Below, piece after piece: positions 1,143 to 9,794 of a DNA stretch of 40,486 bases. The notes under the pieces were generated by a model that was not told the origin of the DNA, did not search any database, and saw only the letters and a program-made list of their open reading frames with translations. Position 1 is the first letter of the stretch. Each line of letters opens with the position of its first letter. The translations under genes were made by a program, and so were the position numbers. Source of the DNA: a virus (lineage: Duplodnaviria; Heunggongvirae; Uroviricota; Caudoviricetes); the IMG/VR virus record IMGVR_UViG_2526164661_000012; one strand, given 5' to 3'.

Positions 1143-1631
1143 TTATCTTTCTACTTCCCAGCGTAGAGATTGCATTAACATAGCATAAATATTGAACAGG
1201 AAAGTTTTTAAAGTTAATACAAGGAACACTGCACTGCTTCCTACGAGTATATATAGTATTTGAACTCCAACAACTTTAGTGCAATGAGAAAACATTAAGG
1301 CTCTGAGTAATTTTGTAGCCAATCCATTTTCTTGCCCGAAAAGAAGGACTAAAAGATAGATAACAGACCAAAATATGAAATATATAAATACTCTCATAAA
1401 TACGCCATAAACATATTTTAAGTAACTTATCCCGTATAATGGATGCTTATACTCCATTAATGAAAGGAAAAGTTCAGGTTTATTTATGGTTGCAAATATT
1501 GTAAATCCAGTAATTAAAAAACCTAATGTTGTTGTAGTGAATCCGAATACTAAAGGTGTCCATTGTCTAATAGATGAAATTAACTCTGGTGATGAAGATA
1601 GACAAAAAGCATTAATAGATAATAATATCAC
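1143..1631 (-). CDS. Hypothetical multi-pass membrane protein (lysogeny-operon cargo)
   Basis: 162-aa ORF in AT-rich DNA; several hydrophobic segments (LVFGFTTTTLGFLITGFTIFATI, IYFIFWSVIYLLVLLF, ILYILVGSSAVFLVLTL); same strand as cI and int. Confidence 0.55.
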   Translation of the reverse strand: MILLSINAFCLSSSPELISSIRQWTPLVFGFTTTTLGFLITGFTIFATINKPELFLSLMEYKHPLYGISYLKYVYGVFMRVFIYFIFWSVIYLLVLLFGQENGLATKLLRALMFSHCTKVVGVQILYILVGSSAVFLVLTLKTFLFNIYAMLMQSLRWEVER

Positions 1632-1748
1632 TAATAATAATGTGAAATAAAAGTCAAATGAATTGACCTTTATTTTTTAGTTAATTTGTAAACATCATGC
1701 AAAGATCGCTCTTTGGTCAGATCTTCTGGGTTGAATGTATATTTCATA

Positions 1749-2213
1749 CTATAGCCACCTAGAAATTATTGATGTTAACTTGGAAAAAATTTTAGTATAA
1801 TCTTCACGTTCTGGAATAATAATATTTCCTGCATCCTTTAATTCTGTGAATGCAGAATACGCCTCTTGAGCAGCTCTTTCCAAATCAGAACTAAGTTGTG
1901 GCCTTGATGCTTTTAGAGTAAAACTATCATTATTCCCTGATAGCCTTGCTCCGTGTTCATCTTTACCACTTATAATTACTTTAGAGTTGGCCATTCGGGT
2001 TGCACTTGTTGTTTTTTGAATGACGGCCTCAGAATTTAAACCATCTTCATTTTTATTTGTGTATACTAATTGAGCTTTACTACTATTAAGTTCTTCTTTT
2101 TCTTGTTCAATTTTCCTCCAGAAGCCATCAAGAGATATATTTTCACTATTTGTTGGCAATAACTCAATTGATAATCTATTAACAACAGAAAAGAGTTCAA
2201 CAAAATTGCTCAA
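1749..2213 (-). CDS. Hypothetical protein (lysogeny-operon cargo)
   Basis: 154-aa ORF in AT-rich DNA, co-oriented with cI/int; no recognisable motif. Confidence 0.5.
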   Translation of the reverse strand: MSNFVELFSVVNRLSIELLPTNSENISLDGFWRKIEQEKEELNSSKAQLVYTNKNEDGLNSEAVIQKTTSATRMANSKVIISGKDEHGARLSGNNDSFTLKASRPQLSSDLERAAQEAYSAFTELKDAGNIIIPEREDYTKIFSKLTSIISRWL

Positions 2214-2257
2214 TGATCTTGGGTCTGTTAAGGGGGTAACCCGTAATTTGGGGGCTC

Positions 2258-2797
2258 CTAGTTTACGATAAATATCTTTTTTATACAGTCGATCAATGTA
2301 TGATTTTTTCTTTCTAATTCTTTTATTTTTTTTACTTCGTAATCCACAAAAGAATTATATCGCTGTGCAAGGCAATACTTGCTAGTATTTTCAAATTCTT
2401 CTAGGGTAGGGGCTCCAGAAACCTCTTTGCAAAGCATTAATCTGTGCTCATTAAGCATAAGAATAAAAATAGAGCTGGGGTGACTTTCTAGCGTCCTGTG
2501 ATCTCGAATTAATTGACCATCTTGAAATATTTGATCTCGTTTAAATATGGTCTTTTTTATAATGCGGCCACACAATGCAATTGTTGGAACTATAGGACCA
2601 ATAAAATCTGAATCTGTAGTATCTAACGTAATAATTTTTGTGTCAGTAAAGAAATATTCTGTATCTTTAAATTTTCTAACGTATTTTTGTGCGAAAAATG
2701 AAGGAAAAACAATGCAATCAAAAGCATCTAAGAGAACTTTGTCCTCTCCAAAATTTAAGGTATAGTTTGCAAATTCAATAGTTTTCGTAAAGCTCAT
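2258..2797 (-). CDS. Hypothetical protein (lysogeny-operon cargo)
   Basis: 179-aa ORF starting 2 nt after the stop of the repressor gene (2800), implying co-transcription; AT-rich; no recognisable motif. Confidence 0.55.
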   Translation of the reverse strand: MSFTKTIEFANYTLNFGEDKVLLDAFDCIVFPSFFAQKYVRKFKDTEYFFTDTKIITLDTTDSDFIGPIVPTIALCGRIIKKTIFKRDQIFQDGQLIRDHRTLESHPSSIFILMLNEHRLMLCKEVSGAPTLEEFENTSKYCLAQRYNSFVDYEVKKIKELERKNHTLIDCIKKIFIVN

Positions 2798-2799
2798 TG

Positions 2800-3741
2800 T
2801 TAAACCCTTTTTCTAATTATTCCTTTAACTTTATTATTAAATTCCAAATCTTCTTTATCGCATTCAAAGCTATATTTTGTGTTTTCAACGCGGATGCGAT
2901 TGTTTGGAAGTTTAAATATGTCTCTAAAAGTAAATTCTCCGTTAATAGATACTAACCATAGACCATCGCTAAGATACTCCTCTTTGCTAATGATATATGA
3001 ATCATTTGCGGAATTAACTATATAGGGATGTTTTAAATTTTGAGGTAAAATTTCGCTCGAAACGATTAATTCTCTTTGATCAGTAAGTTTGCCGTCACGT
3101 AGATCATAGCAGTCTAATGTAAGCAACCCACTTAGCTTTGTTTGATTGGAATGCCCCTTACCAAAAGATAACCACTCGAGAGACACTCCTGTTTCTAAAC
3201 AGCATTGGATGATCCAGTCTGCCGGAAAAATGTCTCGCATGTATCGTGTAGCTAATGTGCTTTTTGAGATACCAAGGTGATCGGCTAAGGCTTGGCGCGT
3301 TTTGTAACCGTAAGCCTTAACAATTCGCTCTATTGCTGCTTTACCCCCTCGAGTGAAATCCATGTGGTTTTCATTATCGAACTTTATCGTGGGGGTGTGA
3401 ACTTCATTGCAAAATTCATCTGCAGACTGTTTTTCAGCATGCCGTTCTGGCGAAGGAGCTGGCACTCCTTCTTCAGCATCTAAACCAAATGCTAACCATT
3501 CGATTGATGCGCCAGTTTCCATTGAACATATAACAACCCAATCAGCAGGGAAGGTATCGCGTGCATATCTGTTAGCCATTGTACTTTGTGAAATACCAAG
3601 GTGGTTACAGAATGCTTGGCGTGATTTGAAACCATAGGCCATGAGTATTCTCTCAATGACTTTTTGCCCTCCTCGATTCTGCATGACCATGGCTTTCAGA
3701 TGATCTTCAATATGGCGAAATGTGATTTTATTAGTTGACAT
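2800..3741 (-). CDS. cI: CI-type immunity repressor with tandemly duplicated HTH domain and S24/LexA-like C-terminal domain
   Basis: 313 aa; two homologous HTH repeats (GGQKVIERILMAYGFKSRQAFCNHLGISQSTMANRYARDTFPADWVVICSMETGASIEWLAFG vs GGKAAIERIVKAYGYKTRQALADHLGISKSTLATRYMRDIFPADWIIQCCLETGVSLEWLSFG); C-terminus aligns by eye to the LexA S24 domain (SINGEFTFRDIFKLPNNRIRVEN vs ARIDDEVTVKRLKKQGNKVELLPEN); divergent from apl/cII and co-oriented with int. Confidence 0.7.
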   Translation of the reverse strand: MSTNKITFRHIEDHLKAMVMQNRGGQKVIERILMAYGFKSRQAFCNHLGISQSTMANRYARDTFPADWVVICSMETGASIEWLAFGLDAEEGVPAPSPERHAEKQSADEFCNEVHTPTIKFDNENHMDFTRGGKAAIERIVKAYGYKTRQALADHLGISKSTLATRYMRDIFPADWIIQCCLETGVSLEWLSFGKGHSNQTKLSGLLTLDCYDLRDGKLTDQRELIVSSEILPQNLKHPYIVNSANDSYIISKEEYLSDGLWLVSINGEFTFRDIFKLPNNRIRVENTKYSFECDKEDLEFNNKVKGIIRKRV

Positions 3742-3763
3742 ATTCTTTATGCGAACCTATTCT
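3735..3763 (+). promoter_or_regulatory. Sigma70-like promoter (TTGACA-17 nt-TATTCT) reading toward apl/cII (lytic pR-like)
   Basis: Consensus -35 hexamer with 17-nt spacer and TAnnnT -10 read by eye; -35 overlaps the repressor start codon; about 60 nt upstream of the apl-like ATG. Confidence 0.4.
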
Positions 3764-3829
3764 CCGTTTTGTGAAGTTTTCGTCACGATTAATACCGGCT
3801 CACCACAAGCCAATAGGAGATGTTGCATC

Positions 3830-4051
3830 ATGACCCCTAACATTTCAATAACTCTGAATACGCCGCACGTCACAATTGAGCGTTATAGCGAACTTACTGG
3901 TCTTTCTATCGACACAATCAACGATATGCTGGCTGATGGTCGCATCCCTCGTCATCGCCTTCGGAAAGACAAGAAAAGAGAAAAGGTAATGATCAACCTT
4001 GCTGCTCTTACCGTTGATGCACTTACTGATTGCAATGTTGTATTCAACTAG
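3830..4051 (+). CDS. Apl/Cox-like small DNA-binding protein (putative excisionase / lysis-lysogeny regulator)
   Basis: 73-aa product from internal Met of ORF 3722..4051 ([10 protein letters not shown]...), AGGAGA Shine-Dalgarno upstream; first gene of the rightward operon immediately before cII, the position of apl in 186 and cox in P2. Confidence 0.55.
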
Positions 4052-4083: not shown

Positions 4084-4593
4084 ATGTTTGATTACCAAGT
4101 TTCCAAACATCCACATTTTGATGAAGCCTGTCGTGCATTCGCGCTGCGCCACAACCTGGTGCAACTGGCAGAACGTGCTGGCATGAATGTGCAGATTCTG
4201 CGGAACAAGCTGAACCCGGCTCAACCTCATTTATTAACCGCACCAGAAATCTGGCTGCTTACCGATCTGACTGAAGATTCAACGCTGGTAGATGGTTTTC
4301 TGGCTCAGATTCACTGCCTGCCATGCGTACCGATTAATGAGGTGGCAAAAGAGAAACTGCCACATTACGTCATGAGTGCAACCGCAGAGATCGGGCGTGT
4401 TGCTGCAGGTGCGGTATCTGGCGATGTAAAAACCAGTGCAGGTCGTCGTGATGCTATCAGCAGCATTAACTCTGTAACACGACTGATGGCGCTGGCGGCT
4501 GTTTCATTGCAGGCCCGTTTACAGGCTAATCCTGCGATGGCGAGTGCAGTTGATACCGTGACTGGCCTCGGTGCTTCATTCGGTTTGCTGTGA
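4084..4593 (+). CDS. cII: CII-like lysogeny establishment activator (186 CII family)
   Basis: 169 aa from internal Met ([45 protein letters not shown]...); recalled close similarity to coliphage 186 CII; position after apl. Confidence 0.75.
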
Positions 4594-9774: not shown

Positions 9775-9794
9775 TACTGTAAATATAAACAGTG
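9775..9794. promoter_or_regulatory. LexA (SOS) box TACTGTAAATATAAACAGTG
   Basis: Exact CTGT-N8-ACAG palindrome in AT-rich spacer about 45 nt upstream of the ATG at 9836, overlapping plausible -10 region. Confidence 0.65.

Follow-up and report, generated by a model that had tools for sequence, protein, structure and literature searches.

The closest described system to the one reported here is that of coliphage 186, whose repressor CI (PDB entries 2FJR and 2FKD) is among the few repressors for which cooperative wrapping and looping of DNA are understood in structural terms. In 186, cI and int are read leftward and apl, cII and fil rightward, and a LexA-controlled Tum module follows the replication gene; on induction, Tum titrates CI by stoichiometric sequestration (PMC7708051). 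In phages Fels-2 and PSP3 the tum gene is split by a stop codon (Lemire et al.; PMC3121763), and the antirepressor activity of the split PSP3 gene has been assigned to its upstream half (personal communication of G. E. Christie, in PMC3121763). We have analysed the repressor gene cI of a prophage of this type, which is contained in a 40,486-nucleotide stretch of viral DNA (Caudoviricetes; IMG/VR record IMGVR_UViG_2526164661_000012) referred to below as the window. The prophage is a P2-like one of the 186/Fels-2 type and is inserted in E. coli between the genes rcdA and ybjL. It has the locus plan of 186 and a Tum module at the corresponding place, and its CI carries two helix-turn-helix (HTH) domains, or heads, in each chain. 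The explanation that we consider rather probable as a whole is that this protein is a fusion-built immunity repressor of the 186 type, with heads that read the operators, which is not cleaved but is induced by TumA.

The gene and the regions of its product are as follows.

2800–3741, minus strand: cI gene, 313 residues plus stop codon, two-headed 186-type repressor, very probably of immunity (open reading frame, Pfam and 2FJR alignment)
3676–3741, minus strand: N-terminal extension, codons 1–22, as in the 207-residue CI class; overlaps the −35 element of the predicted promoter pR and candidate operator O1
3478–3675, minus strand: HTH1, the extra head, residues 23–88, with recognition helix SQSTMANRYARD
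3364–3477, minus strand: disordered tether, residues 89–126; predicted local distance difference test (pLDDT) score below 50 in the AlphaFold2 model
3154–3363, minus strand: HTH2, residues 127–196, counterpart of the N-domain of 186 CI, with recognition helix SKSTLATRYMRD
2803–3153, minus strand: C-terminal domain, residues 197–313, of the 186 CI oligomerization type, with a predicted LexA-like fold and without the catalytic dyad

Pfam matches the repressor to Phage_CI_repr (PF07022) twice, at residues 23–87 and 131–195 (combined E 2.5e-57), and to Phage_CI_C (PF16452) at residues 213–305 (E 1.3e-19). When the two halves are compared by BLASTP, residues 23–86 align with 131–194 without gaps and with 41 identities in 64 positions (E 3e-34); these two results bear out the two homologous CI-type HTH domains noticed in an earlier, sequence-only reading of this DNA. 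Residues 136–309 are collinear, end to end, with full-length 186 CI (PDB 2FJR; E 1.8e-28), HTH2 being aligned to residues 10–75 of that chain. Residues 127–313 are a complete 186-type CI, in front of which stands an extra HTH domain of the 186 type. An AlphaFold2 monomer model, calculated with an alignment of 39 family members, contains two five-helix domains (residues 25–85 and 133–193, with pLDDT values of 76–85 for HTH1) and a β domain (residues 206–310) with pLDDT values above 90. 186 CI has one HTH domain per chain and the window repressor has two; compared with 186 CI, the latter adds the N-terminal HTH domain, the 22-residue extension and the disordered tether of about 40 residues. P2 C has the equivalent role in the same phage family (Peduoviridae), but is unrelated in sequence to the window CI, has about 99 residues and lacks the C-terminal β domain (PMC3448106). 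The sequence-only reading was right in holding that 186 CI and P2 C are built differently, as each has a single HTH domain. We regard the two-headed protein as a variant of a known repressor family and not as a new SOS sensor. We rejected an isoform consisting of HTH2 and the tail, made from an internal start, since the start required, Met126, is not a conserved residue and is not preceded by a Shine–Dalgarno sequence.

The two heads are of different descent. The identity of HTH1 to N-domains of 207/208-residue single-head CIs (e.g. P0053 from Salmonella) reaches 86%, compared with about 63–64% to its own HTH2, and HTH1 shares the 22-residue N-terminal extension with single-head CIs of 207–208 residues. 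A neighbour-joining tree of 175 HTH domains places the 40 window-type HTH1 sequences in one clade, nested among the N-domains of 47 single-head CIs of 200–209 residues; in all 47 of these the HTH domain begins at residue 23. HTH2 and the N-domain of P0118, a CI of the 196-residue class, share 82% identity, the C-terminal end of the tether resembles the N-terminus of that class (consensus ..P.E..IN.NQGG), and HTH2 and the tail together make up a complete CI of the 186–196-residue class. By these sequence affinities, the repressor is the N-domain of one CI lineage fused onto the whole CI of another. The tandem duplication proposed in the sequence-only reading is thus replaced by a fusion, since HTH1 derives from a different CI lineage. 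P0118 itself (196 residues, single-head; positions 1303–1893 of locus L091) looks as if it had arisen from a two-headed CI by an in-frame deletion that joined MSTSK to the end of the tether at YPNEIKINPNQGG; the L091 switch has its apl-proximal DNA in common with the window and differs in the operator after the −10 element.

Selection was assessed region by region, by comparing the window gene with seven other two-headed genes of the window type. Amino-acid identities, ratios of nonsynonymous to synonymous substitution rates (dN/dS) and synonymous rates (dS) are given below.

N-terminal extension, codons 1–22: identity 55–91%, dN/dS about 1, dS 0.09–0.5
HTH1, 23–88: identity 88–97%, dN/dS 0.01–0.10, dS about 1–2, saturated
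Tether, 89–126: identity 15–55%, dN/dS 0.3–0.8
HTH2, 127–196: identity 74–84%, dN/dS 0.07–0.20
C-terminal domain, 197–313: identity 22–34%

The strongest purifying selection in the repressor is found at HTH1, whose recognition helix is identical to that of the class of single-head CIs that act alone. The low dN/dS at saturated dS indicates that HTH1 is functional and strongly constrained and that the gene is not a decaying fusion. The low dS of codons 1–22 fits a constraint at the DNA level, owing to their overlap with pR and a candidate operator. The switch DNA is 95% identical among prophages whose C-terminal domains (window positions 2803–3153, compared with L083, L084, L086, L093, L097 and L101) share only 22–34% and whose HTH1 domains share 88–97%, which suggests a cassette-like exchange of the oligomerization domain along with the downstream cargo. 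The variable cargo beside the exchanged domains includes GmrSD with HEPN, an AAA ATPase with DUF4276, an ATP-dependent nuclease and others. A pseudogene or a fusion created by misassembly was also considered and rejected, in view of the dN/dS values, about 1,800 member sequences and copies of 100% identity in four complete E. coli genomes.

The tail was described in the sequence-only reading as an S24/LexA-like domain with a candidate catalytic serine (NSANDSYI) and lysine (DIFKLP). The likeness holds for the fold and not for the function: a LexA-type β fold is present in the tail, as is the C-terminal fold of 186 CI, and there is neither a Peptidase_S24 (PF00717) match, even at E≤1, nor a catalytic dyad. 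A profile of 121 C-terminal domains was aligned, profile to profile, with LexA, λ CI and UmuD. The LexA segment SGMSMKDIGIMDG, which bears the nucleophile Ser119 in a G-x-S-M loop, falls within an 11-residue deletion in the repressor profile. The general base of LexA, Lys156, pairs with Arg273, which is Arg in 101 of the 121 homologues and Lys in 17, and Lys277 of the DIFKLP motif pairs with LexA Lys159. At the positions of Ser244 and Ser248 in NSANDSYI, only 6 and 15 of the 121 homologues, respectively, have Ser, and the hhalign probability for membership of the S24 (LexA-like) family is 33%. No Ala-Gly cleavage site had been seen previously, and neither an Ala-Gly nor a Cys-Gly dipeptide occurs anywhere in the 313-residue translation, hinge included. 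The repressor thus differs from LexA, λ CI and UmuD in lacking the Ser-Lys dyad, the serine loop, the Ala-Gly site and PF00717, and its inactivation is predicted to proceed via an antirepressor instead of cleavage. To judge from these alignments, the tail is the non-catalytic oligomerization module of 186-type CIs and has only its fold in common with LexA. Relatives are annotated as ‘HTH and peptidase S24 domain’, from which RecA-dependent cleavage would wrongly be predicted; the present comparison corrects this annotation trap.

The surroundings of cI are those of an immunity locus. Two genes of the lytic operon lie on the opposite strand.

3830–4051, plus strand: apl/cox-like gene, 73 residues, first of the lytic operon (position and size as in related loci)
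4084–4593, plus strand: cII (Phage_CP76, PF06892, E 3.2e-42)

cI lies 88 nucleotides from the divergent apl-like gene (which has no Pfam match), with cargo genes and then int on its other side, and no second CI-type gene occurs elsewhere in the window. Related loci were compared from Klebsiella phages 4LV2017 and ST437-OXA245phi4.2, from Salmonella and E. coli (the loci encoding P0002, P0004 and P0005), from the locus of P0007, from Kosakonia (P0036) and Edwardsiella (P0046) and from E. coli (P0047, CFSAN064036 and 98193). These contexts were obtained by exact-protein look-ups; a contig scan with one genome per species returned mostly single-head relatives. In ten of 11 related loci the two-headed gene is the sole CI gene at the immunity position, the exception being E. 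coli E2348/69 (see below). Its distance to the divergent apl-like gene is 88–127 nucleotides, and downstream of it come one to three cargo genes, which vary between loci, and then int. On the strength of its cI position and of its being the sole CI gene in ten of 11 loci, the gene very probably encodes the repressor that maintains lysogeny, as the sequence-only reading had it. Compared with 186, the window differs in that the cI start codon abuts the −35 element of pR, in that the 186 operator consensus is not found and in the presence of cargo between cI and int. Compared with their counterparts in strain 98193, which has a 100% identical cI, the two cargo genes (window positions 1143–2797, minus strand) lack one T in each of two homopolymer runs, at about 1673 and about 2327, and show no other difference. 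By these deletions a 349-residue gene with a weak DUF4747 match is divided into 179 and 154 residues and a predicted membrane protein of 201 residues is shortened; they are either real pseudogene mutations or homopolymer sequencing errors. PADLOC matched neither the repressor nor the cargo genes.

The predicted switch comprises the following elements.

3735–3763, plus strand: predicted lytic promoter pR, TTGACA at 3735–3740, 17-nucleotide spacer, TATTCT at 3758–3763 (consensus scan, 10/12)
3711–3776, plus strand: candidate CI operators, same-strand GYGAW half-sites, O1 at 3715/3722, O2 at 3751 and O3 at 3771

The −35 element of pR abuts the cI start codon (3739–3741), a layout that is kept in related prophages. 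Candidate O2 lies within ATATTC-N5-GCGAAC at 3740–3756 and candidate O3 within ATTCTC-N6-GTGAAG at 3759–3776; the annotated 186 sites FL, FR and pB read ATTCAC-N5-GTGAAT. The switches of single-head phages with the recognition helix of HTH2, SKSTLATRYMRD, contain GATTTC-N5-GYGAWC as an imperfect inverted repeat at three places, at intervals of 29 bp: before the −35 element, within the spacer and beyond the −10 element. The spacing of the window half-sites, 29 bp and then 20 bp, is that of L089, a single-head phage of the 208-residue class, which likewise has ATTCTC-N6-GTGAA over −10/+1; in L091, whose CI has an HTH2-type head only, another palindrome stands at that place. The window's site in the spacer, ATATTC-N5-GCGAAC, is akin to the spacer sites of the HTH2-type phages. 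Towards apl, the switch is nearly identical to that of L091, and this part probably belongs to the Apl module; the cI-proximal part resembles that of a class-208 phage. Since the site layout copies that of phages whose only repressor has an HTH1-type head, the comparison suggests that HTH1 reads the pR-proximal candidate sites. HTH2 could occupy a neighbouring site, as the apparent half-site preferences of the two types are nearly identical. The different operator geometry that the sequence-only reading expected of a double HTH is plausible. Klebsiella phage ST15-OXA48phi14.1 was tried as a class-208 comparison and proved unusable, as it carries a CI of the Fels-2 type, and a generic search for repeats around the switch returned nothing beyond short families of two copies.

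A second region with possible ties to the repressor lies upstream of the ogr/B-like gene (37380–37631). The motifs TGTGATTTTA and GCGAAATGKRAT are common to pR and the ogr/B promoter and are confined to these two regions of the window. Positions 37309–37388 contain three CG(A/C)AATGGA(A/G) repeats, at 37309, 37327 and 37351, and the 10-mer TGTGATTTTA from this region has a single other copy in the window, at 3721 beside pR. These motifs might mean that the repressor controls the late activator, as happens at pB of 186.

The Tum-like module with a LexA box that had been noticed at 9775–10268 is confirmed, both by the box and by homologues of TumA and TumB.

9775–9794, plus strand: LexA box TACTGTAAATATAAACAGTG (CTGT-N8-ACAG), overlapping the −10 element of a p95-like promoter and arranged as the annotated 186 p95/LexA site
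9836–10024, plus strand: tumA-like gene, 62 residues, predicted antirepressor, 97% identical to Fels-2 STM2728
10035–10268, plus strand: tumB, DinI-like, 77 residues (Pfam DinI, E 7e-23), 99% identical to Fels-2 STM2726.1

The record of STM2726.1 labels that protein as similar to TumB of PSP3. The box, the 62-residue TumA and the 77-residue TumB stand in the same order and position as in the split Tum of Fels-2 and PSP3, whereas both halves form a single 146-residue protein in 186; no similarity between the TumA-like product and the N-terminal half of 186 Tum was detected by BLASTP. The two routes to SOS induction suggested in the sequence-only reading find no support, because the tail of the repressor lacks the catalytic residues, and the LexA-controlled TumA/TumB route alone remains; the window thus has one predicted SOS route, that of TumA. 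TumA is 97–98% identical across phages whose CI tails are about 27% and whose heads are 53–60% identical to those of the window. Since a nearly identical TumA serves CIs with divergent tails and more conserved heads, the heads may be its target, in which case the second head may alter the threshold of induction.

The mechanism that we propose draws these elements together. By analogy with 186 CI, the C-terminal domain would dimerize and build higher oligomers. The heads would bind GYGAW-type half-sites across pR, from within the first cI codons upstream of the −35 element to +1, and would in this way shut off the apl–cII lytic operon. HTH2 would take a neighbouring site 20–29 bp away, such that one dimer could clamp two adjacent operators; 20–29 bp correspond to ∼70–100 Å, which would be within reach of a tether of about 40 residues. 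The repressor would remain uncleaved, and SOS induction would free the box at 9775–9794 of LexA, upon which TumA would be made and would titrate the repressor as in 186, PSP3 and Fels-2.

Several observations weigh against this account. The DNA binding, oligomeric state and immunity of two-headed repressors are all inferred by analogy. The 186 operator consensus ATTCAC-N4..7-GTGAAT is not above background in a scan of the window, its best match at pR scoring 10/12 with an N6 spacer. Although candidate operators at pR are favoured by the O1–O3 cluster of GYGAW half-sites, the densest same-strand one in the 40.5 kb window (at least four in 60 nucleotides occur at 0.04% of positions), this figure is optimistic owing to the refinement of the pattern after the window had been viewed. 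The association of HTH1 type with switch DNA is confounded by their physical adjacency, and the sharing of motifs between pR and ogr/B is marginal (empirical P 0.03–0.07). The Glu-to-Lys residue that apparently separates the dimeric 2FJR chain from the wheel-forming 2FKD is Asn in the window repressor, such that formation of the wheel (14-mer) is not to be assumed. In E. coli E2348/69 (NC_011601; L001 3590–5133), apl and the two-headed gene are separated by a canonical 189-residue CI that has a switch of its own. The gene order in E2348/69 implies that the two-headed protein is not always the promoter-proximal repressor.

A dual specificity, in which HTH1 and HTH2 read different sets of operators and make the lysogen immune to phages of both the 207-residue and the 186–196-residue classes, would account for the descent of the heads from two CI lineages, each the sole repressor in other prophages. 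The mosaic switch, apl-proximal like a 196-class phage and cI-proximal like a 208-class phage, points the same way, as does the variation of HTH1 types among two-headed proteins, in which HTH2 is steadier. The recognition helices differ, however, at only four of 12 positions, the candidate half-sites of both classes are alike (GYGAW) so that distinct specificities are not evident, and ordinary modular recombination explains the mosaic equally well. We regard this possibility as unlikely.

HTH1 might alternatively serve mainly to bind protein, as a docking site or sink for TumA-type antirepressors that shifts either the dose of TumA required or the range of antirepressors able to induce. The conserved head is the likeliest target of TumA, Tum of 186 sequesters CI stoichiometrically (PMC7708051) and two heads per chain would double the binding sites. 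Against this, HTH1 has kept, unaltered, the recognition helix found in repressors that act on DNA by themselves, and the window retains the pR-proximal sites of those single-head phages. A role confined to this seems to us quite improbable.

E2348/69 also raises the question of whether the two-headed protein could be an accessory regulator, for example of the downstream cargo or defence genes, or a relic, with the immunity repressor elsewhere. In that strain a two-headed CI of 307 residues lies 50 nucleotides downstream of the 189-residue CI, the next gene encodes a KAP P-loop NTPase, and the 189-residue CI is 56% identical to HTH2 plus tail of its two-headed neighbour; these tandem CI genes could mark an intermediate stage in the replacement of a switch, or its outcome. 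An accessory role would also suit the variable cargo genes that always follow the two-headed gene. It is made very unlikely by the lack of any other CI-type gene in the window or in ten of the 11 related loci, by the strong purifying selection on both heads, by the start codon abutting the pR −35 element, as expected of a switch repressor, and by the viable phage PSP3, which has this type of cI only. A working S24 autopeptidase, inactivated by RecA-stimulated self-cleavage in addition to the Tum module, is extremely improbable in view of the missing Pfam match, nucleophile loop, general base and cleavage site, the poorly conserved Ser244 and Ser248 and the induction of 186 through Tum (PMC7708051).

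Two-headed CIs are found well beyond the window. A homologue search yielded about 45 clusters (at 90% identity) of two-headed proteins of 285–330 residues, with about 1,800 member sequences, from E. coli, Salmonella, Klebsiella, Enterobacter, Citrobacter, Kosakonia and Edwardsiella. Eleven complete E. coli genomes and 13 records of Klebsiella phages contain an identical or nearly identical gene. When HTH2 served as the query of an exhaustive search, only 228 family representatives were obtained at E≤1e-3, with two matched stretches in many of the best 150. Two further two-headed lineages were found: the PSP3 group (Pantoea, Hafnia, Citrobacter and Enterobacter) and a Shewanella group. Within the Shewanella proteins the two heads share 54–69% identity, and no more than 37% with heads of the other lineages, which points to an independent duplication. 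PSP3 CI (NP_958086, 286 residues, annotated as immunity repressor) contains two copies of PF07022 and one of PF16452, as does the window protein, and shares with it the immunity position and the split tumA/tumB. It belongs to a separate lineage, however, with heads that are 34–48% identical to those of the window, which are closer to each other (63%), and with a shorter tether and no 22-residue extension. A published comparison remarked of PSP3 CI merely ‘a longer C-terminal domain’ (PMC3448106), and the two-headed architecture is not described in the full-text literature retrieved for the Pfam name and for tandem-HTH repressors.

A more general proposal, which we put forward tentatively and which is on balance doubtful, is that two heads per subunit are a recurrent, selected alternative design of the 186-type switch, in which a dimer with four tethered HTH domains clamps operators 20–29 bp apart. 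Such a design would have intramolecular cooperativity built in and would possibly recognize two operator dialects, and stripping of the repressor would take twice as much TumA, which would reset the threshold of SOS induction. It would account for the independent origins in the E. coli/Salmonella/Klebsiella, PSP3 and Shewanella lineages, as well as for the strong constraint on the first head and the free swapping of C-terminal cassettes. With the heads of 186 CI doubled, the window version offers a natural test of how head number and tether length affect operator occupancy, the range of immunity and the induction threshold. Prophages with two-headed CIs occur frequently in clinical E. coli, Salmonella and Klebsiella, with defence cargo immediately next to cI on its downstream side, and knowledge of their induction is therefore of practical value.

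Some further features were noted. After the tum module, between the replication and portal genes, lie open reading frames at 10535–11065 (minus strand) and 11783–12865 (plus strand, with a weak Peptidase_M48 match), neither of which was matched by PADLOC; P2-like phages have their main defence hotspot in this replication–portal interval (PMC13586616). The tail sheath gene contains, at 30989–31021, two TCAC-N5-GTGA-like sites 18 bp apart that match the FL/FR-type operator of 186 more closely than any others in the window; the overall count of such sites is not above chance. Finally, five proteins from the search of family representatives (P0192, P0201, P0205, P0228 and P0255) are 484–1426 residues long and contain five to ten tandem repeats that match the HTH domain, P0201 having ten repeats in 834 residues.

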